56,367 nucleotides of DNA. It comes from a virus (taxonomy: Duplodnaviria; Caudoviricetes). Positions 31,801 through 55,021 of this stretch are shown in pieces; position 1 is the stretch's first letter, and each line of letters begins with the position of its first letter. Location of the stretch: positions 1 to 56,367 of IMG/VR virus record IMGVR_UViG_3300020204_000079; one strand, 5' to 3'. A program made the position numbers and the translations under genes. Below the pieces are notes generated by a model. That model worked only from the letters and a program-made list of their open reading frames with translations. It did not search any database and was not told the DNA's origin.

Positions 31801-34800
31801 GTGTCTTACTCATTCGTAGACAGCATCACGAATCCTGGCGGTTCTAGCGAGGCTACTGCTAGACGGGCAGAAGCTATTAGGGATCGCATTGAAGACCAAG
31901 ATCGCGCTCGCATGGGCGGATATAACTTTGTCGACAACATCTCTGAAATTCAACAGCCACAGGCATTGCTGCGCGCGTCAGCAATACCAAATGACGTTGA
32001 ACAACCCCAAGAGGTAAAGACTCGCAATCCATTTAAGCAAGTTATCCCCAGGTCGCAAGAGGTTGTCGGCAACTTGGCAGAGGGTTACACCCGAGTGGCT
32101 AAGCCGTTCGGTGTTATTGATCAGACCATCAGTAAGGCATCGCCATTCCTGGGCAGCTTAAACTTGTTGCGCCGCACTATGCAGGGGCAAGAGGGGCTGG
32201 AGCAAGAAAAGCGCGGCTTAGATGAGCTACAAGCTTGGGCGCAAACACAAAAGGACGTAACCAAAGATGTTGGTTATGCCCCAACAAAGCAGCTTGGTGA
32301 CCTCGCAACCAACCCGCTAAATGTTGTACCGTTCGTTGCTGAGCGCGTTATTACCTCACTGCCTGACATGGCGGCTGCGGTCGTTGCGCCAAAGGCATAC
32401 ATTGCGGCACGAACCAATGAACTGCTGAACGAGCGCCTAAAGAACGACAACAAAACGCTGGAACAGGCAACTTTTGCCGATGTGGCGGCTGCTGCTACTG
32501 GCGCTGTCATAGAAACTACGCTGGAGCGGTTTGCCACAAAGAGCTTGCTTAAAGGCGGCGTGGGACAGGGTTCATCAGTTGGTGGGCGCATTGGTAGAGC
32601 AACCGCGCTCCAGTCTGGGACCGAGGGTCTTGAAGAAGGCGCAGCCAATCTTGCGGCAACCCTAGGGACAGAGCGGGGTGTCGACCTCAAAGAGCTTGGC
32701 GCTCAAATGCTTGAGGGCGCTATTGTTGGCGGCGGTCTAGGCGCTACCGTACAAAGCGGTAAAGAGGCTTACGTTAAAGCTACGCCTCAAAAAGACGCCG
32801 ACCGCAGATTCGCTGCTCTTGCGAGCGCGATTGATCAGGATGTCAACCAGACCACATTTGCGCAGTCTGGAATGGATGCCCAGGCGCGAATGGCTCTTGA
32901 CCCCAGTCTGACCCAAGAGCAACGCCGAGAAGTTTCTAATGTGCGTCTTCAAGACCTGGCGGACATTGCTGCTGCGGAGCGGGAAGCAGACGCTTCAGGT
33001 ACTACAACAGCTGTTATTAACAGTCAAACAGGCAATGAACCAGATAAAAATGTTGTGGGTAGCTCACCAGGTGAGCCTATCAACAACTTATCCACGTCCC
33101 CCGCGGCAGTAAACTTATCAACTACTGGGGACGCGGCAACAGATGTGGTTGCCCAGAGCGAGCAGAAATTCCTGGACGACCTGGACTTAGCCAGCCAACA
33201 GCAAAAACAAGCTGTTGAACAGCCCGAAACCCTAGCTGTTGCACTGAACGGTATTGCTGCTGACTTGCAACTTCAACCTAACGAAACGCTGAACGTAACC
33301 GAAGTCACTACCGACAAGCGGTTGAATAAGTTTGCAGAAGCGCTGAGCCAAGCGTTCGGCGTAAACGTACATTGGGTTGATTTTGGCGAACAAGGCATGA
33401 CGACCAGCACTGGTCGCAACCTTGGCGGCTTCAACGGCTATCGCCTGGACAACACGATCCTTGTGTCGCCGAATGCCGACTTTATGGACACGACGTGGCA
33501 TGAGTTAACGCACACGCTTGAAACCAAGTACCCAGAAATCTATGCACGGCTGCGCGACATCATAGTCAGCACTGCTGACCCAGTCGTAAAGCAACGTCTT
33601 TATGACGCACTAAATACCCGTCGCATGCAGGAGGTGGGTCAGCCCATGTCCGCAGCCCAACTTGAGTCTGAGTTGGTCGCTGTGGTTGTTGGACAGCAAT
33701 CAACAGACCCAGCCTTGCTTGGACAGCTGTTTGACAGCTTCCAGGACAAGACCCTGGCTCAGCAGTTCCGCGATGTTCTGACTGAAATCTTAGACCGCTT
33801 GTCCGCGGCGCTGCGTGGTCCTCAGTACATCAAAGACCGCCAGCGTGTTAATCAAGCCAGGGACGCAATCAAGACCGCGTTTGCTGAGTACCAAAAGCGT
33901 GAGGCTGCGAGGGTTGGCGGGACAGCACAAACAGCTGTTGCTACTGGTCAGCAGACGATAGCTGTTGCGACACAGCCCGCAACGCAGACCGTAGCACAGC
34001 CCGCCGCGCCGATTACCCAGACAGCCGCTCCGCCAGTTAAGCCTGAGAAGCAGGGCAAGTTTTCGCGTGAGGAATTGCTTGGTGCGCTGGTCAATGGTGA
34101 TGCGATAAGCGTTACTGATTTGATTGCTCACCCTGACATCTTTGCTGTTTATCAGCAGACCCGCGCTGTACTGCGTCGCGCACCGCCAGTCAAAAAAGTT
34201 TTTGATGACCGTGCGAAAGTCCTTGCTGACCGAGAAGGGATGACTCTTAAAAGCGGTCCAATTAAGAGCTTTGATCGCTCCTTCTCCAAGATTTGGTTCG
34301 ACTACAGCGGCGATCACACCAAGATCGGTGACGTGGTTCGATCAACCCTGGTGGTCAATGACTTGCGTGATTTGCAGGACATGATTAAAGCGACGACCAG
34401 TTTCTTTGATGGCGTAAGCATCAAGCGAAATGGCTGGGACCCAAATGCGCCAGTTCACCCCAGCGGCTACCGCGATGTCTTCTTCAGGGGCGCATCCTTC
34501 CTGAACTTCTCTGTCGAGTTACAGATGAACTTTGCCCCGATGATGGAGGCAAAAGAGATTGCGCATGGTTTCTACAAGATAGAGGATCAACTGCGCCGCG
34601 ACATCCTGAGCCAGGACAAACCCATGTCCCCTGGCGACATCTCAGCGGCTCAAGACCAAATCAGAGAATTGCAGCTTAAACAATTCCAGCTGTATAGCGT
34701 GGCGGCTCAGCGAGTCTTCGACGGGGCGAATGCGCCACGCCAAGCAGCTTCGGTCATAGGTACGCCCTCGGATGTCCAGGTGGACAAGCCGAACGAGCGC

Positions 34801-37800
34801 GGCGCTACCTCGCCGGTGCCCGGGTTGTCGTCCCAAGCCGACAATGTGCCGTCGGGCGCGCGGGTAACTGGTACACCCATAACCTCGAAGAAGGTGGTCC
34901 CTTCCGGGAACGAAGCCGGAATTTCCATATCTTTACCTCCTGTAACAATACCTAATAGTAATATACCACAGCAAGTTGATACTGTGCAAGAGCAGACCGA
35001 CGCTCCCAAAAAGGGTGTTAGTCAGTATTCGCGCTCAACCGTGTTGCTCATGCAGATGTCTGATGCAGATGCTCGACGCGCGATTGGCATGGACGCCAAG
35101 TCTAATAAGGTGCGCGATGTTGGCGCAGCCCTGAACGCCAAGACTCTCAAAGAGGACGGCGAAATTTCTGACAAGAACACCACCGAAGAGGCAATGAAAG
35201 AGATTGCCGACATCCTGGTGGGCGAGATTTCTTATCAACTGGGCACATCCGCAGACACCGGCACGGGCTTAGGCTGGTATTCAGCCAACTACCCCAACGC
35301 AGTTAAGCGATTGGCTCGCGTCTACCCAGAGTTGGACGAAGACGCGGGCGCGCGCAACGTGTTCACCGCCATTGTTGCCATCACCTCTAACGGTGAAAAG
35401 GTCTCGACCAACATCAGCAACGCCCTGAAGATTTACGACGGCTTCCGTGATGGCGGCGCTCTTCAGCCGGTTGGCACTCGCCGTGGCTCGATGAGCGCAA
35501 CCCTTGACCGACTGCAAGCACTGATTGATCAGTTCGGCATGGACGGTTTCAGCGACCATCTGTTGGAAGAGCTTACCGTTGGTCAAATCAACGCAAGCCT
35601 GCGAGCAGCCGGGAAGAAAGCTAACTCTAGCTACACAGCAGACACGGTGATGCCACGAGCCGCACTGTACTTTGGTCCCAAGCTGGGGGCTTTCTATGCC
35701 AACCTCATGGGGTCCGAGGGCTACCTCACTATGGATTTGTGGTGGAGCCGCACATTCAACCGCATTCGTGGGACGCTGATCCCTGAACCTACCAAGTCGA
35801 GTGTTGAGTCTGTTCGACAGCTGTTGGGCTTGCCAGAGAATGTGGACGACGAGGTCGTCGCACTGAGCGCCATCCCGTACCAAGAATCGTACAAGCAGAA
35901 GAAGTACAAGGGCGGTACAGAGCTTGAGAAGAAAGCGAACACACTGGTTAAAACGACGTTCCTTGAACTCAACGAGGCGCCGTTCCGGGCGAGCGACCGT
36001 AGCTTTATGATTGGCACCACGCTGATGGCTCAAGAGAAGCTATCCGATAACGGCGTCAAGCTGACCCTTGCTGACATTCAGGCGGCACTGTGGTACTACG
36101 AGAAACGGCTTTACGCGAAACTGACCGGAAGGAAAACAGATGACATCGGATACGAAGAAGCAATCATCGCCGCAGCAGAGGGTGATCGACCCCAGCGATC
36201 CCCTGCACGATTTAATCGAGGGGGAACTGGCGGGACTGTCGGGACAACAGTCGGTCGAGATGTTGCAACAGATGTTCCCGTCAACCAGCCAGAAGCCAGA
36301 ACCGAACCAACAGAAGTAGAAACTGTTGGACAGTACAGCCGACCGCTGGTGCTTGATGCCATCAACGGCAAGGCAACCGCGCCTGACCTGTTCATCATCA
36401 ACGAGAACCCCCGTGTTCTGACAGCTGTTGGTGCGCCGGAGGAGCCGCTTGTTATTAGCAAGCGCACGGTGATGAAAGTGTCTAATCCAGAGGGCGCTGG
36501 CAAATTCACCGAAGACTTCCGCGGCTACAACTCTGCTGGCTTCCAGGTGCAGCGCGCCAAGCGCATTGCCCTGACTGTTGATGAGTTGCGTTCAGTGCCT
36601 CGAATGATCGGCAATCCTGTTGCAATCATCAAGGTGATGCCTAACGCACAGCTAAACCGCCGTGAGTCGTACAAAGTGGTTCTCGACATGGTGAAAGAAG
36701 GCAACCCTGTTATCGCCATCGTCCAGCCTGGTGTGCCGCAGCGCAGTAAAGAAACTGGCGTCACCATGCGAGCCAGCGAGATCGCCTCGATCTACCCCGT
36801 AAACCAAGAGTCGTCGCTGCGTGAGACCAACAGCGAGATTGCTGCTCAACAGCTGTTGTACTTCAACAAAGGTAAAGCTACCGTCCTGGCAAGCAAAATT
36901 GGAAGCAAGCTTTCTGCACTAACAAGCGGGGCAACTGGTCTGCGCAGCAAGAAGCCCGGTGACTTCCGAAGCCTGGAGTATGACCTCCACCCGAAGAGCA
37001 ACTTCAGCCGCAGCATGGCGGAGGATATAGCGCTTCAGGAAGAGTTCTTGATAGAGCGAGCCAAAGAGTCTGGCTTTGAAAATGTAGACGCCTGGATCGA
37101 CGCTGACTACAACGGGTTTGTTAAGTCTGCTGCTGAGTGGCGCTCGCAAAATCCTGTCAACGAAGGATTCTTCTCTCGCCGCGTCGCATTGCAAGGCAAC
37201 AAGTTCACCCTACCGGCGCGCACGGTTCGTGAGAAGTATCTTGAGAACCTGTTTCAGAACCGCATGTCCAGGGTGGAAGACATCCAACAGGCTGTTCAAC
37301 AGCAGGGTGGAACGCTCGACATCAAGGACAGCGCAGGCAATGTACTTGGCAGCACAGACATTACGGCTGCTTCTCAGCGGATGCGGGGTGCTGTTCGTGG
37401 TCGTTTAGATCGATTCAAGAAAGAGGTCGAGATTCCACTGATTGAGGACGCAGCTAAGGCTGGCGTTGACTTGGATGAAGCCGCTCAGTACCTCTACGCC
37501 ATGTATGCACCAGAGCGCAACCTGATCATTCAGACTAGGAACCCCTCACAGTTCCCAACTGACGGTGGCTCGGGTATGACTAACGCAGAAGCAGCAAAGA
37601 TTGTTGCTGACTTCCGTAAGCGCGCGGACTTCCCCGTGTTCCAAGCGATTGCTAAGCGATTCCAGGACATCACCAATATGACCCAGAGTATCTTGGTGAA
37701 TGAAGGCTTGGTTGACGCAGCGACCGTGAATCAGTGGAAGGCTGAGAATCCAAACTATGTACCTCTGCGAGGCTTTGAGAGCGTGGACGAAGAGACTGGC

Positions 37801-39984
37801 AGCAGTTTGGGTGTCGGCTCTCCTGGTCGATTAGACCCACGCAATCCGTTTGTCCGTATCGCTAAGGGTCGTGAGTCCAGGGCTGGCAACATCGTTGAGA
37901 ACATCCTCAAGGACTACACCGACGCCGTTGTTGTCGCCGAAAAGAACAAGGTCTACCGATTGTTGGGACAGTTTGTCCGCGACAACCCAGACCGCAATCT
38001 CTGGGAAATCAACGCGCCATCAATCAAGCGTTCGTACATTCGCAACCAGCTGCAATCACCGCTCGGTTTTATAAGCGGCGAGGTGCGCATTGCTTTTGAG
38101 ACCAATCAGAACCCGAACGAAACCATCGCCTATCGCGTCAAAGGTCGCCCAGTATTCATTAAGGTTGCAGACCCAGGCATGCTAGATGACCTGAAGATGA
38201 CTGGCGCAATCGGTAGCGGCGATCAGGCGAAGCTGTACTTCAGGGTTTGGGCTGGCGCAATGTCTACACTAGCGAAGGTTCGTACTACTCTGTCCCCTGC
38301 ATTCGTTGCGATTGACGCGGTTAGAAACGCAGAGACCGGCGGGTTCTACAACCTTGTTAAGTACGGTCCATCGCAAGCCATCAAAGCTTATGGAAGACTG
38401 TATCAGGCGGCGCGAGTTGCTTGGAAAGCTGAGCGTGACAACAACTGGACCGGAAGTGCCAACCAGACAGTCACAATCAACCCCCCTGGTCAGCCTTCAC
38501 AAACCTTGACGCTCAAGCAGCTGTACGACATGTATCGTGCAGACGGCGGCAAGGTTGGATACCTGGACATCAAAGAGATCGAAGACATCCAGAAGGATAT
38601 TCAGACTCGATTCAAGGCTGCTCAAGTTGCTGGCTCTTTGAACCCAAAGACATACCTGACCCAAAGCCTGAACGCCCTCAGTAAGGTTGAAGACCTAATG
38701 CTGGATGCGGCTGGCTCAATTGAATCAGCGATGCGCTTTGCAACATACATGACTCGCCTCGAAGCTGGCGCAAACAGAATGGATGCGACCAACGCAGCCA
38801 AGAATGTAACCGTCAACTTTGACGCAAAGGGCAAGTGGACTCCGTACCTGGGGCTAGGGTACATGTTCGCTAACGCCAATATCCAGGGCGCAAAGCAAAC
38901 CACCAGCATCGTCTTTAAGTCTGGCAAGGCTGGCGCAGCCGTGGGCGGTGGGTTAATCGCCCTGGGCTACGGTCTTGCTCAACTTGGTGCGCTGTCGCTG
39001 GGTGATGATGATCAGCCGTATTGGGATAAAGAGGTTTATCGTCAAAGCAAGTTCAAGAGCTTGGTGTTCTTTGATGCGATAGGCAATTCGACAACCGTTC
39101 CGATGGCATACGGTCTGGGCTTTTTTGTAAACATGGGCTACGCACTGAGCGACTTGCAGCGCGGAGTTCCGCTGGCGAAGGTCGGTGCGTTTTTGCGAGA
39201 CAGTTTCTTTACTCACTTCTCGCCGTTTGGTTCAATGGAAAACCTGGCTACGTTCTTCTCACCAACGCTGCTTGATCCGATTGCAGTAGTTGCCATGAAC
39301 AAGACTGAACAGGGCTTACCGTTGATGCCTGACTCAGCCTACGATAAAGGCAAACCCGACAGCGAAAAGTTCTGGACTTCAACTCGCGGCACGATGTTCC
39401 AACAGCTGTCGCAGTACCTGAACGAAGCCACCGGCGGAACTCAGGGCATGAGCGGAGCCGTTGATGTCAGCCCAGAAACCATGCGTTATTGGGTTGGCTG
39501 GTTCACCGGCGGTGTGGGTGGCGCAATCCGAGATGCGGCGGAAAGCATTTATTTAACATCAGAGATTGGCGCTGATGCTGCTTTCGAGAAGAACAAGGTG
39601 CCGATCCTCAAGGCGTTCTACCAATCCAACACCGGCAAGGCTGATCAGATCGAGTTCTATCGGAACGCTGAGAAGGCGGAGCGCGCGATCAATGAATGGA
39701 AGCTCTTGTACGGTACAGAGCAAGCGAAGAAGCCAGAGGTTGCTGACCGACTTCGTGAAGAGCGCAAGCTACAGGCACTTGGCGCTGCTGTTGATGACTA
39801 CAAGAAAGCTTTGTCTGGTTTGCGCAGACAAGAAGTTGATGTAATTGACAAGCGCACCTCTGGTCGATACGACGCAGCTGAAGCCGAAGCCAAGCTAAAG
39901 AACATCGCCGAGGACAAGGCAAGACTGTACAAGCGCTTTAACAAAGCCTTTTACAAAGCTGACCCCAACACACCCGGCAACTAA
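31801..39984 (+). CDS. Giant polyvalent internal virion protein (metallopeptidase-like, RelA/SpoT-like, glycosylase-like, MuF-C-like and LPD38-like domains)
   Basis: 2727 aa; HELTH, GYRD..ELQ, MDLWWSR, NPVAII..IASIY, YVPLRG, TVNFD.KG, VSPE...W.TGGVG motifs. Confidence 0.85.
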   Translation: MSYSFVDSITNPGGSSEATARRAEAIRDRIEDQDRARMGGYNFVDNISEIQQPQALLRASAIPNDVEQPQEVKTRNPFKQVIPRSQEVVGNLAEGYTRVAKPFGVIDQTISKASPFLGSLNLLRRTMQGQEGLEQEKRGLDELQAWAQTQKDVTKDVGYAPTKQLGDLATNPLNVVPFVAERVITSLPDMAAAVVAPKAYIAARTNELLNERLKNDNKTLEQATFADVAAAATGAVIETTLERFATKSLLKGGVGQGSSVGGRIGRATALQSGTEGLEEGAANLAATLGTERGVDLKELGAQMLEGAIVGGGLGATVQSGKEAYVKATPQKDADRRFAALASAIDQDVNQTTFAQSGMDAQARMALDPSLTQEQRREVSNVRLQDLADIAAAEREADASGTTTAVINSQTGNEPDKNVVGSSPGEPINNLSTSPAAVNLSTTGDAATDVVAQSEQKFLDDLDLASQQQKQAVEQPETLAVALNGIAADLQLQPNETLNVTEVTTDKRLNKFAEALSQAFGVNVHWVDFGEQGMTTSTGRNLGGFNGYRLDNTILVSPNADFMDTTWHELTHTLETKYPEIYARLRDIIVSTADPVVKQRLYDALNTRRMQEVGQPMSAAQLESELVAVVVGQQSTDPALLGQLFDSFQDKTLAQQFRDVLTEILDRLSAALRGPQYIKDRQRVNQARDAIKTAFAEYQKREAARVGGTAQTAVATGQQTIAVATQPATQTVAQPAAPITQTAAPPVKPEKQGKFSREELLGALVNGDAISVTDLIAHPDIFAVYQQTRAVLRRAPPVKKVFDDRAKVLADREGMTLKSGPIKSFDRSFSKIWFDYSGDHTKIGDVVRSTLVVNDLRDLQDMIKATTSFFDGVSIKRNGWDPNAPVHPSGYRDVFFRGASFLNFSVELQMNFAPMMEAKEIAHGFYKIEDQLRRDILSQDKPMSPGDISAAQDQIRELQLKQFQLYSVAAQRVFDGANAPRQAASVIGTPSDVQVDKPNERGATSPVPGLSSQADNVPSGARVTGTPITSKKVVPSGNEAGISISLPPVTIPNSNIPQQVDTVQEQTDAPKKGVSQYSRSTVLLMQMSDADARRAIGMDAKSNKVRDVGAALNAKTLKEDGEISDKNTTEEAMKEIADILVGEISYQLGTSADTGTGLGWYSANYPNAVKRLARVYPELDEDAGARNVFTAIVAITSNGEKVSTNISNALKIYDGFRDGGALQPVGTRRGSMSATLDRLQALIDQFGMDGFSDHLLEELTVGQINASLRAAGKKANSSYTADTVMPRAALYFGPKLGAFYANLMGSEGYLTMDLWWSRTFNRIRGTLIPEPTKSSVESVRQLLGLPENVDDEVVALSAIPYQESYKQKKYKGGTELEKKANTLVKTTFLELNEAPFRASDRSFMIGTTLMAQEKLSDNGVKLTLADIQAALWYYEKRLYAKLTGRKTDDIGYEEAIIAAAEGDRPQRSPARFNRGGTGGTVGTTVGRDVATDVPVNQPEARTEPTEVETVGQYSRPLVLDAINGKATAPDLFIINENPRVLTAVGAPEEPLVISKRTVMKVSNPEGAGKFTEDFRGYNSAGFQVQRAKRIALTVDELRSVPRMIGNPVAIIKVMPNAQLNRRESYKVVLDMVKEGNPVIAIVQPGVPQRSKETGVTMRASEIASIYPVNQESSLRETNSEIAAQQLLYFNKGKATVLASKIGSKLSALTSGATGLRSKKPGDFRSLEYDLHPKSNFSRSMAEDIALQEEFLIERAKESGFENVDAWIDADYNGFVKSAAEWRSQNPVNEGFFSRRVALQGNKFTLPARTVREKYLENLFQNRMSRVEDIQQAVQQQGGTLDIKDSAGNVLGSTDITAASQRMRGAVRGRLDRFKKEVEIPLIEDAAKAGVDLDEAAQYLYAMYAPERNLIIQTRNPSQFPTDGGSGMTNAEAAKIVADFRKRADFPVFQAIAKRFQDITNMTQSILVNEGLVDAATVNQWKAENPNYVPLRGFESVDEETGSSLGVGSPGRLDPRNPFVRIAKGRESRAGNIVENILKDYTDAVVVAEKNKVYRLLGQFVRDNPDRNLWEINAPSIKRSYIRNQLQSPLGFISGEVRIAFETNQNPNETIAYRVKGRPVFIKVADPGMLDDLKMTGAIGSGDQAKLYFRVWAGAMSTLAKVRTTLSPAFVAIDAVRNAETGGFYNLVKYGPSQAIKAYGRLYQAARVAWKAERDNNWTGSANQTVTINPPGQPSQTLTLKQLYDMYRADGGKVGYLDIKEIEDIQKDIQTRFKAAQVAGSLNPKTYLTQSLNALSKVEDLMLDAAGSIESAMRFATYMTRLEAGANRMDATNAAKNVTVNFDAKGKWTPYLGLGYMFANANIQGAKQTTSIVFKSGKAGAAVGGGLIALGYGLAQLGALSLGDDDQPYWDKEVYRQSKFKSLVFFDAIGNSTTVPMAYGLGFFVNMGYALSDLQRGVPLAKVGAFLRDSFFTHFSPFGSMENLATFFSPTLLDPIAVVAMNKTEQGLPLMPDSAYDKGKPDSEKFWTSTRGTMFQQLSQYLNEATGGTQGMSGAVDVSPETMRYWVGWFTGGVGGAIRDAAESIYLTSEIGADAAFEKNKVPILKAFYQSNTGKADQIEFYRNAEKAERAINEWKLLYGTEQAKKPEVADRLREERKLQALGAAVDDYKKALSGLRRQEVDVIDKRTSGRYDAAEAEAKLKNIAEDKARLYKRFNKAFYKADPNTPGN
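34201..34620 (+). other. RelA/SpoT synthetase-like domain within the giant protein
   Basis: PIKSFDRSFSK, GDVVRST, SGYRDV, VELQM, AHGFYK in canonical order. Confidence 0.75.
34707..34928 (-). CDS. Nested antisense small protein, 73 aa (MEIPASFPEGTTFFEV...), candidate immunity protein
   Basis: AGGAGGT 6 nt upstream of ATG; own promoter; globular-looking sequence opposite an S/P/T-rich linker. Confidence 0.75.
   Translation of the reverse strand: MEIPASFPEGTTFFEVMGVPVTRAPDGTLSAWDDNPGTGEVAPRSFGLSTWTSEGVPMTEAAWRGAFAPSKTR
34960..34989 (-). promoter_or_regulatory. Sigma70-type promoter for the nested antisense gene
   Basis: TTGCAC-18-TATATT with extended -10 TG, in a locally AT-rich patch of a coding region. 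Confidence 0.65.
36140..36319 (+). CDS. Overprinted +1-frame ORF, 59 aa (MTSDTKK...DPLHDLIEGELAGL...)
   Basis: Translated by hand; GGAAGG upstream; spans the R/G/T-rich linker after the glycosylase-like domain. Confidence 0.45.
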   Translation: MTSDTKKQSSPQQRVIDPSDPLHDLIEGELAGLSGQQSVEMLQQMFPSTSQKPEPNQQK

Positions 39985-40143: not shown

Positions 40144-41169
40144 TTACTGTGGGTTAGAAGCGCCCACGTTCCCCACATTTTGCGCACAGCCACCCACAGC
40201 TGTTGGCATGCTGTTGTTGGCGTACTGTCTGGAGCCTTCAGCCGACAGGTGAGCGTACCTGTTGACCATCTCCAGGGTTTGCCAACCGCCCAGCGCCTTG
40301 AGTGTGAGCAGCGGTGTGCCGTTCATGGCGTGATAGCTGGCGAAGGTGTGACGGAGGTCGTGCCACCTGAAGTTAGAGATGCCAGCCCTGCCCAGTGCTT
40401 TCTTCCAGGCTGCTGTGTTTGTGTTCTGTACTGGGTAGCCGCAGTATGTGAACACATGTGTAGCGCTTTGGTTTCTTTCACCTTCAAGAATCTGGATCGC
40501 TCTATCCCCTAGAGGGATGCCGTGATTTCGACCCGACTTGTACTCAGTCGATTCAATCCACAGCAAACGACGCTGCATGTCAACCCGGTCCCACCGAAGT
40601 CCAGTCACATTGGACATCCGAAGACCTGTCAATACGCTGAACTCAGCCATCACCCGCAAGTGGTGCGGCAGTTCACGCATCAACCTGGACAGTTCATCCT
40701 CAGATAGAAACCGCAGACGCGCTTTGGGCGCGGGGTAGGTCTTCATCTTGACGGGCGACACATCCATCCATCCCCATTCGACCGACTTATTAAAGAGCGC
40801 CTTCACGAACTTTAGGTAGTGGTTTGCATTTGAGTCCGTAGTCTCAATACGCTTTTGCTCCACTGCCTTGCGAACATCGCCATCAGTGATCGTCGAGAAC
40901 ACTCGACCAGACCAGTGCTGATCAAGCCATCGCGCAATCGATACGTCACGGTCCAGCGACCGCTTGTCTGTGCGCTCAGCAAACCACCGCTTAGTGGCGT
41001 CGTCCCAAGTTAGAGGTTTGGCTTGACCCCTTGTGATTTCAGCCAAACGTCTGTCGTGGTACGCCTTTGCTGTTAACTGGTTACCAGACCCAGTTGATTC
41101 ACGATGTCTGGTGCCATCTGGACCGCGCACTTCAATCCAGTAAATGCTGCCGCGCTTGTAAATACTCAT
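40144..41169 (-). CDS. int: Tyrosine integrase
   Basis: TGLR, HDLRHT, LGGW, RYAH catalytic motifs. Confidence 0.95.
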   Translation of the reverse strand: MSIYKRGSIYWIEVRGPDGTRHRESTGSGNQLTAKAYHDRRLAEITRGQAKPLTWDDATKRWFAERTDKRSLDRDVSIARWLDQHWSGRVFSTITDGDVRKAVEQKRIETTDSNANHYLKFVKALFNKSVEWGWMDVSPVKMKTYPAPKARLRFLSEDELSRLMRELPHHLRVMAEFSVLTGLRMSNVTGLRWDRVDMQRRLLWIESTEYKSGRNHGIPLGDRAIQILEGERNQSATHVFTYCGYPVQNTNTAAWKKALGRAGISNFRWHDLRHTFASYHAMNGTPLLTLKALGGWQTLEMVNRYAHLSAEGSRQYANNSMPTAVGGCAQNVGNVGASNPQ

Positions 41170-51719: not shown

Positions 51720-53789
51720 TTACATGACACGGCGCGTGTCGCGCTGTTCCAGCTGTTTGATTACTGTTTTCAGCGAAGACTTGTGCATGTCGTCCAGCGT
51801 GACCGGGCAACCGACTGCGTAGGCTTGCGAGAATTGCCAAGCGTTGGTGTATATGCCAAAGCCGACGACATCGACGCCGTACAACTTGTAGGCAGCGCTG
51901 GTAAGCTGCTGCATAGAGTTGATTTCGCCGAACCCGTCCGTAATGACCACTACTACCTTGCGCTGGTGGGGCATGGCGGACAGCTGTTCGCAGGCTGTTT
52001 TGACGCCCTGGTAGTCCGGTGTTCCGTAGTTCGGCAGCCGCTTCATAAGGTCGAAGTGGTGCGGAACATTGGCGCATTTGTCAGCAAAGCGCTTAGCAAC
52101 TACCAGGGTGCAGTTGCCGCTGTCCATCATGGTGGAATGGTAGACGCCAGCCAAGTCAGTGTTTGTACCGCCACCCATGCCGTACCGTGCGTTTTGGAAG
52201 CCGACAACTTCAACGTCAGCACCCGACGCCTCGCAAGCTGTTGCAACAGCCCAGCCAAGATCAACAGCGCTGTTGATGGACGAACCTTTCATCGAGGCAG
52301 ACAGGTCGATGACAACCGAGACCGCAGTATCGATGCCATCGGCAAACCACCGGCGCTTGAACACTTGCTCGGAGCCAGCCAACATGCGGGGCGCGCGCTT
52401 GCCGTCGAAGCGACCGCCCATCGCGCCACCGTCCCAGCCGCAGCGCTCCGGAGCGTTAAGAATCCGGAACAGCTGAGCCTTGAGGGCGGGGAGCGAGGAG
52501 CCGTTTAGCTTTTTAAGCTTGTTGCGCACGGTGCGCTCGGTTACATCCTGCAACTGCGACCACTTGCGCATGTCACTGCGCATTGCGGGAGCGATGGCGG
52601 GAAGGTTGATGGCACCCTTGGTGCGCTGGGCAATACCCTGGAAGACATCGTCCACGTTTGGCTCGGGGGCAATGACCGCCTCCTCGCTAAAGGTGTCCGA
52701 CTCAGGGGCGATGAACGGGTCGCCGACCTCGGTGCCGCCGGTTTCATCAGCACCATCGTCGGCGTCACCGGCGCTGTCGAAGAGCGTGTCGCCCGACTCG
52801 GGTGCAGCCTCGGCGTTGGCAGAAGCTTCCTCAGACAGTGCGTCAGCCTCAGCCTGGGCAGCAGCTTTGGCAGCAGCGTCGGGGTCGTCATCACCGAAGT
52901 TGTCATTGGCATCGTCCTCCGCGAAACGCGAGGGGGGATTCCAATGCCCGCTAGGTCCATCGGTGTCGGTGTCAGCATCAGCATCAGCATCAGCACCAGC
53001 ACCGAATAAGTCGTCGTCGGCAGCGTCCTGCGGCTCGGCGTCGTCGCCTTGCTGCTGGGGCATTGACTGCGGACCCTGAAGCTTGGTGAACGTATCGGGG
53101 AACTGCTGTTTCCAGCTGTCCACAAACTGTTCGGCGATCACCAGGGCACCAGCGCTGCCCTTGCGATCAAGCGGCAGGAGCTTGACTGCGTCGGCTGCTG
53201 CTGCATACAGCGCGCGGTGCGGTTCAGGGATGCGCCCCAGAAGCTGCTTAGCAAAACCGTTACCGTCACCCATTGCAGCGCGGCAAACCAGCGCCAGAGC
53301 GAAGGGTGCCGAGTTGATGCTGCAAGGGTTGAATTCGCCGTCAGCAATGATTTTGCTGGTGAACTTGCTCATCAACTTTTTGAACATCGAACGGGCACCG
53401 CGAGCCTTGCCGCTGGTAATGACCGCATGCTCGATCCGGGCGTCCTCGATGCCGTTCCAGCAGTGGTGAATCAGCGCACCCTTGTGGCGCGTCACGCCAG
53501 ACTGGGTGTAGGCGACGTGCCCGAGTTCATGCAGCGTATAGGCGCTGATGAAGTCCGCCTCCTGGCGGTTGATCATGGCGTTGTCAGGCAGCGCTGGGTA
53601 GTTGATCCGGAAGGAATTGACCCAGTCGGTGTCGGTGTTGTTCACGCTCCACGATGCAAACGCCACGTCACCCTCGAAAGTGGCGACGCCGGTGCCGACC
53701 TTGAAGCGAAAGCCAAGGTTTGCCAACTGCTTGTTGGCGTGGGAGAGGGCGGCAGCTTTGACGCGCGCCCCTTGTATGCGGTTTGTCAT
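51720..53789 (-). CDS. CobT-like vWA-domain protein
   Basis: HELGH, NGIEDARIE, acidic linker, MIDAS DLSASM, GTP, VITDG. Confidence 0.85.
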   Translation of the reverse strand: MTNRIQGARVKAAALSHANKQLANLGFRFKVGTGVATFEGDVAFASWSVNNTDTDWVNSFRINYPALPDNAMINRQEADFISAYTLHELGHVAYTQSGVTRHKGALIHHCWNGIEDARIEHAVITSGKARGARSMFKKLMSKFTSKIIADGEFNPCSINSAPFALALVCRAAMGDGNGFAKQLLGRIPEPHRALYAAAADAVKLLPLDRKGSAGALVIAEQFVDSWKQQFPDTFTKLQGPQSMPQQQGDDAEPQDAADDDLFGAGADADADADTDTDGPSGHWNPPSRFAEDDANDNFGDDDPDAAAKAAAQAEADALSEEASANAEAAPESGDTLFDSAGDADDGADETGGTEVGDPFIAPESDTFSEEAVIAPEPNVDDVFQGIAQRTKGAINLPAIAPAMRSDMRKWSQLQDVTERTVRNKLKKLNGSSLPALKAQLFRILNAPERCGWDGGAMGGRFDGKRAPRMLAGSEQVFKRRWFADGIDTAVSVVIDLSASMKGSSINSAVDLGWAVATACEASGADVEVVGFQNARYGMGGGTNTDLAGVYHSTMMDSGNCTLVVAKRFADKCANVPHHFDLMKRLPNYGTPDYQGVKTACEQLSAMPHQRKVVVVITDGFGEINSMQQLTSAAYKLYGVDVVGFGIYTNAWQFSQAYAVGCPVTLDDMHKSSLKTVIKQLEQRDTRRVM

Positions 53790-53800
53790 GCGTTGTCCTT

Positions 53801-55021
53801 TCAGGCAGCAACTTCCATTTCACTGTCGCTGGTCGTAATTGCCAGCACGGGGTCGAAACTCACTAGTGCAGTGCCCAGTGCAGCGCGCAGCGCGTCGTCG
53901 GAGACGTTGGCTTTCCAAAGCTGTTGAAGAACCTCGGCTGACTCGGGAGACGCACGGTTGACCATTGTTTCCTCGAAGGCACCCCGGAAGTCCTGACCAT
54001 CAGTCAGCGCCTCGGCGAGGTAGAACGCCTCGCGCAGCGTTGGGATATGGTCAAGCTGGGCAGAATCACCGGCTTGGCGGCAGACGGTCAGGAAGGCGAC
54101 GATTACCTCAGCGAGCGGCAGCTTGACGCCAGCGCGCATCGAGATGACCTTGGCTTCCATTTCAGGCTTGAGGTAGCTGAAGTTCAGCGTTTTAGCGAAG
54201 CGGTTGACGAAGGCGACGTTTTGCTCACGCACCCCGACGTACATGCCGGTGAAATCACCGCGACCGTTAGAGTTGTCAGCAGCCATGAACACGACGCCGG
54301 GAGCCTTGCGGATCACCTGTCCGGTTTCGGGAATGGTGACCACGCCTTCAGGTTCCAGCGGAGCGTGGAGCGCCGACAAGTACTCAGGACGGGCAAAGCT
54401 GACCTCATCGAGCAGGATGATTGCACCCGGGCGCTGCATGCCGCGTAGGATGACGCCTTGCTGGTAGACCGTGCTGCCGTTTTTGACGCGCTCACCGCCA
54501 ATGAATTCGTAACGCTCAGCACCGGAGTCGAAGCTGACCCGGATAAAGGCGCGACCAAGACCGGCGGCGACGTTTTTGACAAACTCGGTTTTGCCGGTGC
54601 CAGCGGGACCAGCCAGCCAGACGTTGCGTCCGCGCTTAATGGCAACGACAGCGGAAAACAGCAGTTCGGCGTCGAACTTGTACATCGGGTCAAGTATCGG
54701 GGCGGCGGGGTCGTTCCAGACCTCGACCTCGGTGCCAGCGTATTTGCCGCGGATGCCAAACACCTGACCCAGGGTGGCGGTTTTGACAACAGCAACGTCA
54801 GGCTGTTCGACCGGCTGTTCAACAGCAGCGGGGGCAGCAGCGCCCCAGACGCCAGCGATCAGACCGACCTGGGGAAGCGCAGCAGCCACAACCTCACCGG
54901 GCAGCGCAGAGACAGCGGCGACCATTTCCTCCTTGGAGGCACGGGCGAGATCGCGTCCTTTGCCGGTTACCCGGCGCAGCACGTCATTGAGTTGGGGTTT
55001 GGAGAGTATGTCAAGGTTCAT
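53801..55021 (-). CDS. MoxR/CobS-family AAA+ ATPase
   Basis: GPAGTGKT, LLDE, AADNSNGRGD, N.AF.NRF. Confidence 0.9.
   Translation of the reverse strand: MNLDILSKPQLNDVLRRVTGKGRDLARASKEEMVAAVSALPGEVVAAALPQVGLIAGVWGAAAPAAVEQPVEQPDVAVVKTATLGQVFGIRGKYAGTEVEVWNDPAAPILDPMYKFDAELLFSAVVAIKRGRNVWLAGPAGTGKTEFVKNVAAGLGRAFIRVSFDSGAERYEFIGGERVKNGSTVYQQGVILRGMQRPGAIILLDEVSFARPEYLSALHAPLEPEGVVTIPETGQVIRKAPGVVFMAADNSNGRGDFTGMYVGVREQNVAFVNRFAKTLNFSYLKPEMEAKVISMRAGVKLPLAEVIVAFLTVCRQAGDSAQLDHIPTLREAFYLAEALTDGQDFRGAFEETMVNRASPESAEVLQQLWKANVSDDALRAALGTALVSFDPVLAITTSDSEMEVAA

Follow-up and report, generated by a model that had tools for sequence, protein, structure and literature searches.

A putative gene nested in the +1 frame behind a DUF7178-like domain of a giant phage polyvalent protein

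Can the spacer between two modules of a giant phage protein carry a second gene in another reading frame? This question is raised by a stretch of viral DNA (IMG/VR virus record IMGVR_UViG_3300020204_000079; hereafter the window, i.e. the whole of the 56,367 bases that were analysed), in which the gene for a 2727-amino acid (aa) polyvalent protein contains, on the same strand and in the +1 frame, an open reading frame (ORF) of 59 codons that is located between a domain resembling the DUF7178 family and the next module of the giant protein. Comparison with homologous loci indicates that this ORF very probably represents a genuine nested gene in the spacer behind the domain. That it codes for a protein is held with still greater confidence, while possession of its own translation start is considered likely. 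The features on which this assessment is based are as follows (the frame of the giant gene is referred to as the main frame).

31801–39984, + strand: host gene, a 2727-aa phage polyvalent-protein ORF (based on the ORF list and translation)
35035–36168, + strand: DUF7178-like domain, main frame, aa 1079–1456, the C-terminal tail of which (DDIGYEEAII) overlaps the +1 ORF
36122–36124, + strand: +1-frame TGA, 15 nucleotides (nt) before the ATG, shutting the +1 frame upstream
36127–36132, + strand: Shine-Dalgarno (SD)-like GGAAGG, 7 nt before the ATG, built from a main-frame Gly codon (GGA) and Arg codon (AGG)
36140–36319, + strand: overprinted +1-frame ORF, 59 aa, ATG to TAG (stop codon at 36317–36319)
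36182–36277, + strand: conserved core of the small protein, V15–F46 (VIDPSDPLH...GLS...MLQQMF)
36334–36342, + strand: YSR opening the next module; the +1 ORF stops 15 nt earlier

Each of the elements on which the initial annotation had relied is present in the window, namely the domain motifs GWY, AITSNG, GPKLGAFYANL, TMDLWWSR and QAALWYYEK, the GGAAGG element, the ATG at 36140, the 59-codon length and the YSR at 36334. The ORF includes DPSDPLHDLIEGELAGLSGQQSVEMLQQMF and, as the +1 frame is shut by the TGA at 36122–36124, its ATG at 36140 is the sole possible start. In the main frame, the DNA across the ORF encodes a G/R/T-rich spacer, and main-frame conservation extends to approximately position 36168 (DDIGYEEAII), thereby overlapping the first ten or so codons of the ORF. 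Judged from the window sequence by itself, the nested ORF is within chance: shuffling of synonymous codons across the gene produced, in the +1 and +2 frames, a mean of 2.2 ATG-initiated ORFs with a length of 59 aa or more, as compared to the two observed, and the probability that the +1 frame is open over these 59 codons, given the main-frame protein, is 0.29. The caveat attached to the initial annotation, i.e. that an ORF of 59 codons may arise by chance, holds for the window alone (2.2 versus 2), and the case beyond chance is made solely by the comparison of homologues. A scan for promoters and terminators across 35700–36500 returned two weak promoter-like sites (one at 35814–35841) and no terminator, and was not used as evidence.

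Relatives were obtained by scanning viral contigs with the domain, which yielded 100 confirmed loci, 80 of which were kept (38–83% identity), corresponding to 67 distinct sequences including that of the window. A nested ORF was scored when a +1-frame ATG ORF of at least 40 aa started within −60 to +120 nt of the domain end. Such an ORF was present in 73 of the 80 loci, and in 50 of the 80 it was at least 59 aa long, as opposed to none of the 80 in the +2 frame. Counted by distinct sequence, an ORF of at least 40 aa occupies this place in the window and in 62 of 66 loci (63/67), the misses being L047, L048, L053 and L062. Whether homologues retain a +1 ORF with a ribosome-binding site at this position had been proposed as a check of the initial annotation, and the comparison, in which the ORF, its ATG and its SD element prove to be conserved, answers it in the affirmative. 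The ORF is furthermore found in seven of eight usable loci on bacterial genome contigs, including that of Polynucleobacter sp. UB-Piko-W3.

The openness of the +1 frame exceeds what either the genes or the main-frame peptides would predict. The interval from +31 to +166 relative to the domain end is free of +1 stops in 62 of 67 sequences, whereas other positions in these genes would lead one to expect 15.3. When main-frame codons are resampled, an open +1 frame is expected in 30.4 of 66 sequences, with a mean probability of 0.46 that the +1 frame is open given the main peptide. Conversely, when the +1 codons are resampled synonymously, the main frame is expected to be open in 19.2 of 64 sequences, whereas it is open in all 64, indicating that this stretch is truly dual-coding, with a variable G/R/D/E-rich spacer as its main-frame product; in almost every locus the main frame extends beyond 1 kb. 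The +2 frame was open in two sequences versus 2.2 expected (n=64).

In order to be independent of alignment, the ratio of non-synonymous to synonymous differences per site (pN/pS) was determined at fixed offsets from the domain end in 29 distinct loci, and an alignment-based count agrees with the outcome. Up to offset +45, the main-frame ratio is 0.05–0.4, and over the first ten or so codons of the ORF, which cover DDIGYEEAI, the main frame dominates with a ratio of 0.034. From +60 to +165, the main-frame ratio rises to 1.3–2.05, that of the +1 frame is 0.44–0.56 and that of the +2 frame is near 1. The pattern indicates that, from approximately codon 15 of the ORF onward, purifying selection no longer acts mainly on the main-frame protein and has switched to that of the +1 frame. 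Positive selection on the spacer was rejected as an explanation, as the main-frame ratio above 1 is an expected artefact, caused by main-frame third positions being the second positions of the constrained +1 frame.

Analysis of 14 disjoint pairs of sister sequences points in the same direction. Differences at the first, second and third main-frame codon positions number 156, 108 and 426 in the domain as compared to 97, 60 and 42 in the overlap (chi-square p 5e-23), and over 490 residues the amino acid differences amount to 88 in the +1 frame, 126 in the main frame and 131 in the +2 frame. Differences in the +1 frame were below those in the main frame in 11 of these pairs and above in one. When the window was compared with its closest relative, L001, across approximately 2,380 aligned codons, the segment 36142–36262 was the only one of 40 codons in which the third main-frame position is the least variable (11, 8 and 4 differences at positions one to three). 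Across 36140–36319, +1-frame identity with L001 (0.64) exceeds main-frame identity (0.54), which is unique among the 11 alternative-frame ORFs of the gene. None of the remaining ten of at least 40 aa displays the signature: the alternative-frame identity is the lower one for nine (0.17–0.44 versus main-frame identities of 0.30–0.83), and for two no codons aligned. The idea, put forward in the initial annotation, that an effector with an overprinted immunity protein is a repeated design in this gene was thus not upheld, and the presence of a second overprinted gene within the giant gene was rejected on the basis of both the frame-identity comparison and the 40-codon scan.

If the nested ORF is translated, do the loci also preserve the means to begin its translation? 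In the 34 sequences that carry a 'DD' pair at the start, the first Asp is encoded by GAT in 33 of 34 cases (GAT accounts for 47.8% of the Asp codons of these genes), and it is GAT followed by G that makes the ATG; the second Asp is encoded by GAC in 32 of 34. The SD element of this group is likewise built by codon choice, with Gly being GGR in 31 of 32 sequences (26.6% overall) and Arg being AGR in 28 of 29 (22.9% overall). In the other clade, the ATG is made from TAT-G at one of two tyrosines, and 28 of 33 sequences possess one or both of these sites (TAT, 31% overall). A +1 stop lies within 30 nt upstream of the used ATG in 32 of the 67 distinct sequences and, in eight of these, just 3 nt before it. 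The SD element of the window has a 5-nt match to the anti-SD sequence, which is reached by only four of 63 internal out-of-frame ATGs of the gene. Taken together, the biased start codons, the upstream +1 stops and the rare SD strength favour independent initiation over frameshifting, and at the sequence level the ORF has both a start codon and a ribosome-binding site of its own. The central claim of the initial annotation, i.e. an overprinted +1 ORF with its own ribosome-binding site between the domain and the next module, is therefore borne out by the conservation of ORF, ATG and SD element as well as by selection acting on the +1 frame.

The conservation extends across two deep clades, designated 'IGY' (37 sequences) and '[IV]SY' (25 sequences), for which the same nucleotides were translated in each frame and compared between clades using hhalign. 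The +1 translations align over 40 columns with a probability of 95% and an expectation value (E) of 3.9e-8, as compared to E values of 0.75 for the main frame and 0.3 for the +2 frame. The family motif is [VI]D-x-x-DP-[LV]-[WH] ... G-[LM]-S-P-x-E-R ... L, and the form common to both clades is [VI]D-x-x-DP-[LV]-[WHF] ... [ST]-P-x-[EQ]-[RH] ... L. A more distant case is provided by the isolated Limnohabitans phage DC33, whose domain is 29% identical to that of the window and which has a 71-aa +1 ORF with AAGGAG located 7 nt before its ATG. This ORF begins more than 100 nt after the domain end and, in its C-terminal part, shares 59% identity over 27 aa with the long +1 ORFs of L021 and L025.

A profile of the small protein retrieved three proteins from a set of 5.8 billion, and 60 small proteins (E≤1e-3, mostly 44–195 aa) among 1.84 billion representatives, most of which are occasional gene calls of the nested ORF. 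The ankyrin protein P0030 was discarded as a spurious motif match due to its GMSEEQR repeats. The GenBank record of DC33 has no nested coding sequence annotated, and the word 'overlapping' does not appear in the text of the paper describing this phage (PMC12195039), the supplementary ORF tables of which could list more ORFs than the GenBank record. The absence of the family from the DC33 annotation and its near absence from protein databases are attributable to gene callers skipping nested genes on the same strand. A blastn search of a phage collection with 35000–36500 gave no match, tblastn gave four distant records, and searching viral contigs with P0016 and P0057 confirmed no related locus. 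A literature search on polyvalent proteins and overlapping, nested or overprinted genes found no description of this ORF.

The nested peptides are 43–127 aa in length (median 59, as in the window) with a net charge near +1. Across 62 peptides (4003 residues) there is not a single cysteine, the longest hydrophobic run is seven residues, and no membrane segment is present; an Rz1-like spanin was consequently rejected, as these peptides possess neither cysteine nor hydrophobic segment. The small protein has no match in Pfam, PHROG, NCBIfam or the PDB, and ten long forms gave chance-level matches only in Pfam and PHROG. PDB sequence searches with the peptide profile and with P0016 returned nothing better than E 0.19, and P0016 had no NCBIfam match. 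A CUE match of the window peptide (Pfam, E 0.1) was dismissed as chance. Long forms of 89–168 aa were observed in L014, L018, L021, L023, L025, L034, L040 and L081 (4073–4285), and in proteins P0016 and P0023. They add an NLPFDP stretch and a second module that ends in ...YDPIE.AM...LTRE.A.EMA..FGF followed by the stop codon. This second module resembles the first (DP-[LI] ... [ST]-[PR]-x-E-[RK] ... L/M ... F), and the long forms thus look as if they had been built by repeating one predicted helical unit.

To which family does the domain in front of the ORF belong? The only family signal is that of DUF7178 (PF23802), which matches the window domain with 21.2 bits (E 3e-4), placing it outside the family at the gathering cut-off of 27 bits, and which matches 33 of 56 relatives at E≤0.01 (best 3e-5). 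The domain is probably a distant relative of DUF7178, hence the designation 'DUF7178-like'. It has no NCBIfam match, a comparison of the domain profile against proteins of similar length gave 11 matches, none of them informatively named, and a literature search found no paper that mentions DUF7178. The domain alignment (A1) comprises 56 sequences with 48 invariant residues. The initial annotation had tentatively compared the domain to HhH-GPD-type DNA glycosylases (PF00730; endonuclease III, MutY, AlkA), a likeness which finds no backing in the profile searches: PF00730 matched neither the window domain (E≤10) nor the 56 members (E≤0.01), the best result of a PDB search with the domain profile was an unrelated protein at E 0.19, and hhalign of A1 against nine PF00730 proteins from three genomes (A3) gave a probability of 0.06% and E 0.73. 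One resemblance is the short spacing K-x17-D-x4-R-x2-N-R, which is found in both the window domain (GPKLGAFYANLMGSEGYLTMDLWWSRTFNR) and the endonuclease III of L096, and of which K216, D234, R239, N242 and R243 are invariant in A1; hhalign left this stretch unaligned. Unlike the glycosylases, the domain has a G-P-K-L-G hairpin instead of the G-h-G of that family.

The domain and the nested ORF are found together in many settings. Across 63 loci, BLAST groups the 250 aa behind the spacer into 13 clusters, and yet the ORF persists. The +1 stop usually falls just before the [YF]-S-[LR] or L-S-[LR] that opens the next module ([YFL]-S-[LR] in general), and where L-S is encoded by CTA/TTA or CTG/TTG followed by AGY, these codons create the +1 stop that closes the nested ORF. 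As the ORF is kept whatever domain follows, the domain and the nested ORF travel as one cassette.

On the reading of the ORF as a nested gene, ribosomes would start independently at the ATG, guided by the GGAAGG that the main frame supplies through its use of rare codons for Gly and Arg. Translation from the late structural mRNA would yield a hydrophilic small protein devoid of cysteine and membrane segments, probably folded as two short helices around a G-[LM]-S-P-x-E-R turn, and this protein would be made in the producing cell beside the giant protein. Its role is a more tentative matter. It may be a partner of the upstream domain, acting as an inhibitor or safety catch (the initial annotation had suggested an inhibitor) or as a helper in folding or packaging, which is possible without being probable. 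Somewhat more doubtful is a specific version of this idea, namely a two-frame effector-antidote cassette in which the domain would be an enzyme injected with the giant protein, and the peptide a cognate inhibitor or chaperone that would be synthesised solely in the producing cell and left unpackaged. With domain and peptide on the same DNA, the recombination that shuffles modules would never separate them.

Several observations, in addition to the chance-level openness of the window ORF by itself, weigh against these interpretations. The first ten or so residues of the small protein are set by the main frame, and the +1 ratio of 0.44–0.56 represents moderate constraint only. The loci are kin to one another, and the counts are not independent; the test on disjoint pairs and the variability of neighbouring synonymous sites (pS 0.32) reduce this problem without removing it. 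L047 has only a 43-aa ORF that starts from a later ATG, while L048, L062 and L053 are without a usable ORF even though all 48 invariant residues of the domain are intact. The loss of the ORF in these three loci implies that the small protein is dispensable in some lineages, which weakens the role of an obligatory antidote. In ctQRb9 and Octadecabacter virus BD1, the two relatives whose domains are most distant, no homologous +1 peptide was recognisable behind the domain. Finally, the grounds for a partner role are limited to position and co-inheritance.

The loci without a usable ORF deserve a brief description. In L048 and L062 (=L064), the next domain (EVAPDPxD) begins approximately 50 aa after the domain end, as compared to approximately 62–95 aa in L022 and L067, which have the same next domain, suggesting that extra spacer length accompanies the nested gene. 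In L053, the main frame ends 51 nt after the domain end and the giant gene then continues in the +1 frame for 881 codons; similarly, in the database protein P0026 the domain end is fused to the nested peptide. These two frame switches, which bear on the frameshift explanation considered below, are due to indels or sequencing errors or, alternatively, to rare fusions that arose naturally.

Is a separate start needed to explain the constraint on the +1 frame, or could ribosomes reach it in another manner? A programmed +1 ribosomal frameshift would attach the +1 frame as an alternative tail of approximately 45 aa to a truncated giant protein (aa 1 to approximately 1447), produced alongside the full-length form. 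The +1 frame directly follows the translated frame, an SD-like element close upstream and the rare AGG codon both favour +1 shifts (prfB and certain rare-Arg cases being precedents), P0026 does fuse the domain end to the +1 peptide, and comparative data alone cannot tell shifting from initiation past the last +1 stop. Against this, the ATG is kept by biased synonymous choice (GAT in 33/34), the SD-ATG spacing of 7 nt suits initiation, and the +1 stops within 30 nt upstream in 32 of 67 sequences, 3 nt away in eight of them, leave little room to shift. Additionally, the codon table of the 67 sequences contains no slippery site common to both clades, which differ in sequence here, the DC33 ORF lies more than 100 nt past the domain end behind its own AAGGAG, and P0026 is a single case that could be an indel or a sequencing error. 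Frameshifting is therefore regarded as very unlikely. Even less credence is given to the absence of any coding function, with the open +1 frame being a by-product of spacer composition or a nucleotide-level element such as RNA structure. While the window ORF alone is within chance and G/A-rich spacers are often poor in +1 stops (as the mean probability of 0.46 illustrates), the substitutions display a three-base periodicity in the +1 phase, the +1 peptides are homologous between clades and the main-frame spacers are not, synonymous choices build both ATG and SD element, open frames are in excess of both expectations (62/67 versus 15.3 from other positions and 30.4/66 from resampling), and the +2 frame behaves as chance predicts.

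If, then, a nested gene is accepted, its product may still be unrelated to the domain. Such an independent effector or regulator (acting in host takeover, anti-defence or exclusion), overprinted in a permissive spacer, is considered a tentative option and about as likely as a partner of the domain. It would account for the three loci in which the ORF is lost behind an intact domain, and the additional modules of the long forms (NLPFDP and ...LTRE.A.EMA..FGF) look like motifs for an outside partner. Moreover, as the start of the ORF overlaps the domain tail, co-inheritance with the domain is a necessity and is thus forced under this explanation as well. The ORF has been retained at a single domain in two deep clades and in no fewer than 13 different contexts downstream, which speaks for a connection with the domain, although physical linkage predicts the same. 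Overprinted genes typically arise in weakly constrained regions, as is generally known and as stated in the abstract of PMC8227390, and a spacer would suit this expectation.

How does the proposed nested gene compare with systems already described? A close formal parallel is Rz/Rz1 of phage lambda, in which Rz1, a lipoprotein that bears a signal sequence and a lipobox cysteine, is embedded in the +1 frame of Rz and the two products work together. Both cases involve a small same-strand +1 gene with its own start that lies wholly inside a larger phage gene, and Rz/Rz1 is the model for the partner idea. In contrast to Rz1, the peptides described here are without cysteine, the host gene encodes a 2727-aa virion polyvalent protein instead of a lysis protein, and the ORF is located in a spacer between domains. 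The classical overprinted phage genes (E within D, and K and B within A, of phiX174; L of MS2) occur in tiny genomes under size pressure. They resemble the present case in that the small protein is of biased composition and looks as if it had arisen de novo, and in that conserved parts of the older frame are dominated by that frame, with the new frame taking over elsewhere. They differ from it in that the phage examined here is at least 56 kb in size and that the ORF, which occupies a spacer within a modular giant gene, accompanies a single domain in the manner of a cassette. In cassettes of polymorphic toxins, the immunity gene directly follows the toxin domain, which is comparable to a small gene located right behind an effector-like domain and co-inherited with it whatever follows. 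In this instance, however, the small gene shares its DNA with the larger one, being read in a different frame, and is lost in three loci with an intact domain; the likeness is one of position and co-inheritance.

The polyvalent proteins themselves, in which many unrelated domains are joined in one polypeptide encoded in a virion-module context, correspond to the host gene as far as the main text of Iyer et al. 2017 (PMC5512222) describes them. In that main text, the words 'frameshift' and 'overlapping' occur zero times, and a gene nested in a polyvalent spacer is not described there.

The findings indicate that conserved genes can lie hidden within the spacers of giant modular phage proteins, and they provide a comparative signature by which more of these may be found, i.e. 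a switch of the constrained frame combined with start signals formed by synonymous codon choice. They also define a cassette of domain plus nested ORF that moves between polyvalent proteins, and offer a handle on a widespread domain, as the binding partner of the small protein is likely to indicate the role of this part of the injected protein. Should the two-frame effector-antidote arrangement be true, it would constitute a new way to keep an effector and its safety catch together. Systems in which the nested gene can be tested are DC33 on Limnohabitans sp. DCL3 (PMC12195039) and the Polynucleobacter strain with a genomic copy (L086).

What kind of gene and phage harbours this cassette? The host gene product contains an LPD38 domain (aa 2418–2600; Pfam E 1.4e-20, 74.7 bits against a cut-off of 27) and a MuF_C domain (aa 1589–1694; E 7.4e-10, 39.3 bits against a cut-off of 27.6), and aa 1813–2720 are covered by PHROG 14770/616/10691; the whole protein had no match in NCBIfam. 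With both Pfam domains above their curated cut-offs, it qualifies as a 'large polyvalent protein' in the sense given in the main text of Iyer et al. 2017 (PMC5512222), and it indeed combines several unrelated domains including LPD and MuF modules. The gene ends the virion module, its neighbours being genes for terminase, portal/adaptor, major head, tail fibre and internal virion proteins.

Upstream of the DUF7178-like domain, an HExxH motif (WHELTHTLE, 33499–33513, aa 567–571), which has no Pfam match, is possibly part of a zincin-like peptidase module as is common in polyvalent proteins. The module that immediately precedes the domain (34100–35020, aa approximately 770–1075) contains ...SGYRDVFFRG...FSVELQMNF..MMEAKE.AHGFYK, which we take, as a lead only, to resemble the G-Y-R...E-h-Q-h-R-T...H..YK core of RelA/SpoT-type nucleotidyltransferases; across 33700–35049, a Pfam search at E≤10 was without result. 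The giant protein contains five copies of the tripeptide [YF]-S-R (aa 754, 1076, 1512, 1735 and 1791), which correspond to the following positions.

34060–34068, + strand: [YF]SR site
35026–35034, + strand: [YF]SR site
36334–36342, + strand: [YF]SR site, the YSR that follows the nested ORF
37003–37011, + strand: [YF]SR site
37171–37179, + strand: [YF]SR site

Each of these sites is located where a new module seems to start, and homologues have [KR]-[LYF]-S-L-[RK] at the same junctions. The tripeptide could be a processing site of a maturation protease or a joint for recombination between modules.

An integrase gene is situated near the virion module on the opposite strand (40144–41169, − strand), where a tyrosine integrase stands beside a T7-like structural module. 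The window probably derives from a temperate podovirus that infects a betaproteobacterium living in fresh water, and its relatives include a Limnohabitans phage and a copy inside a Polynucleobacter genome. The window occurs in many lake-water metagenomes, and the 20 sequencing-run matches listed are all lake-water metagenome contigs with no RNA run among them. Among four runs compared with the window, one variant strain was found; this close strain is present in X15, a lake metagenome from 2025, in which 14 of the 16 listed differences within 35600–36600 are at main-frame third positions and none falls within 36140–36319; as these are single low-depth contigs, they give at most a weak hint that variation is lower in the dual-coding stretch and were not used as evidence. 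Elsewhere in the window, two adjoining genes (51720–55021, − strand) match a CobT-like subunit and a porphyrin-biosynthesis or AAA ATPase family (PHROG 17276 and 249), and look like a cobaltochelatase-like auxiliary pair carried by the phage.

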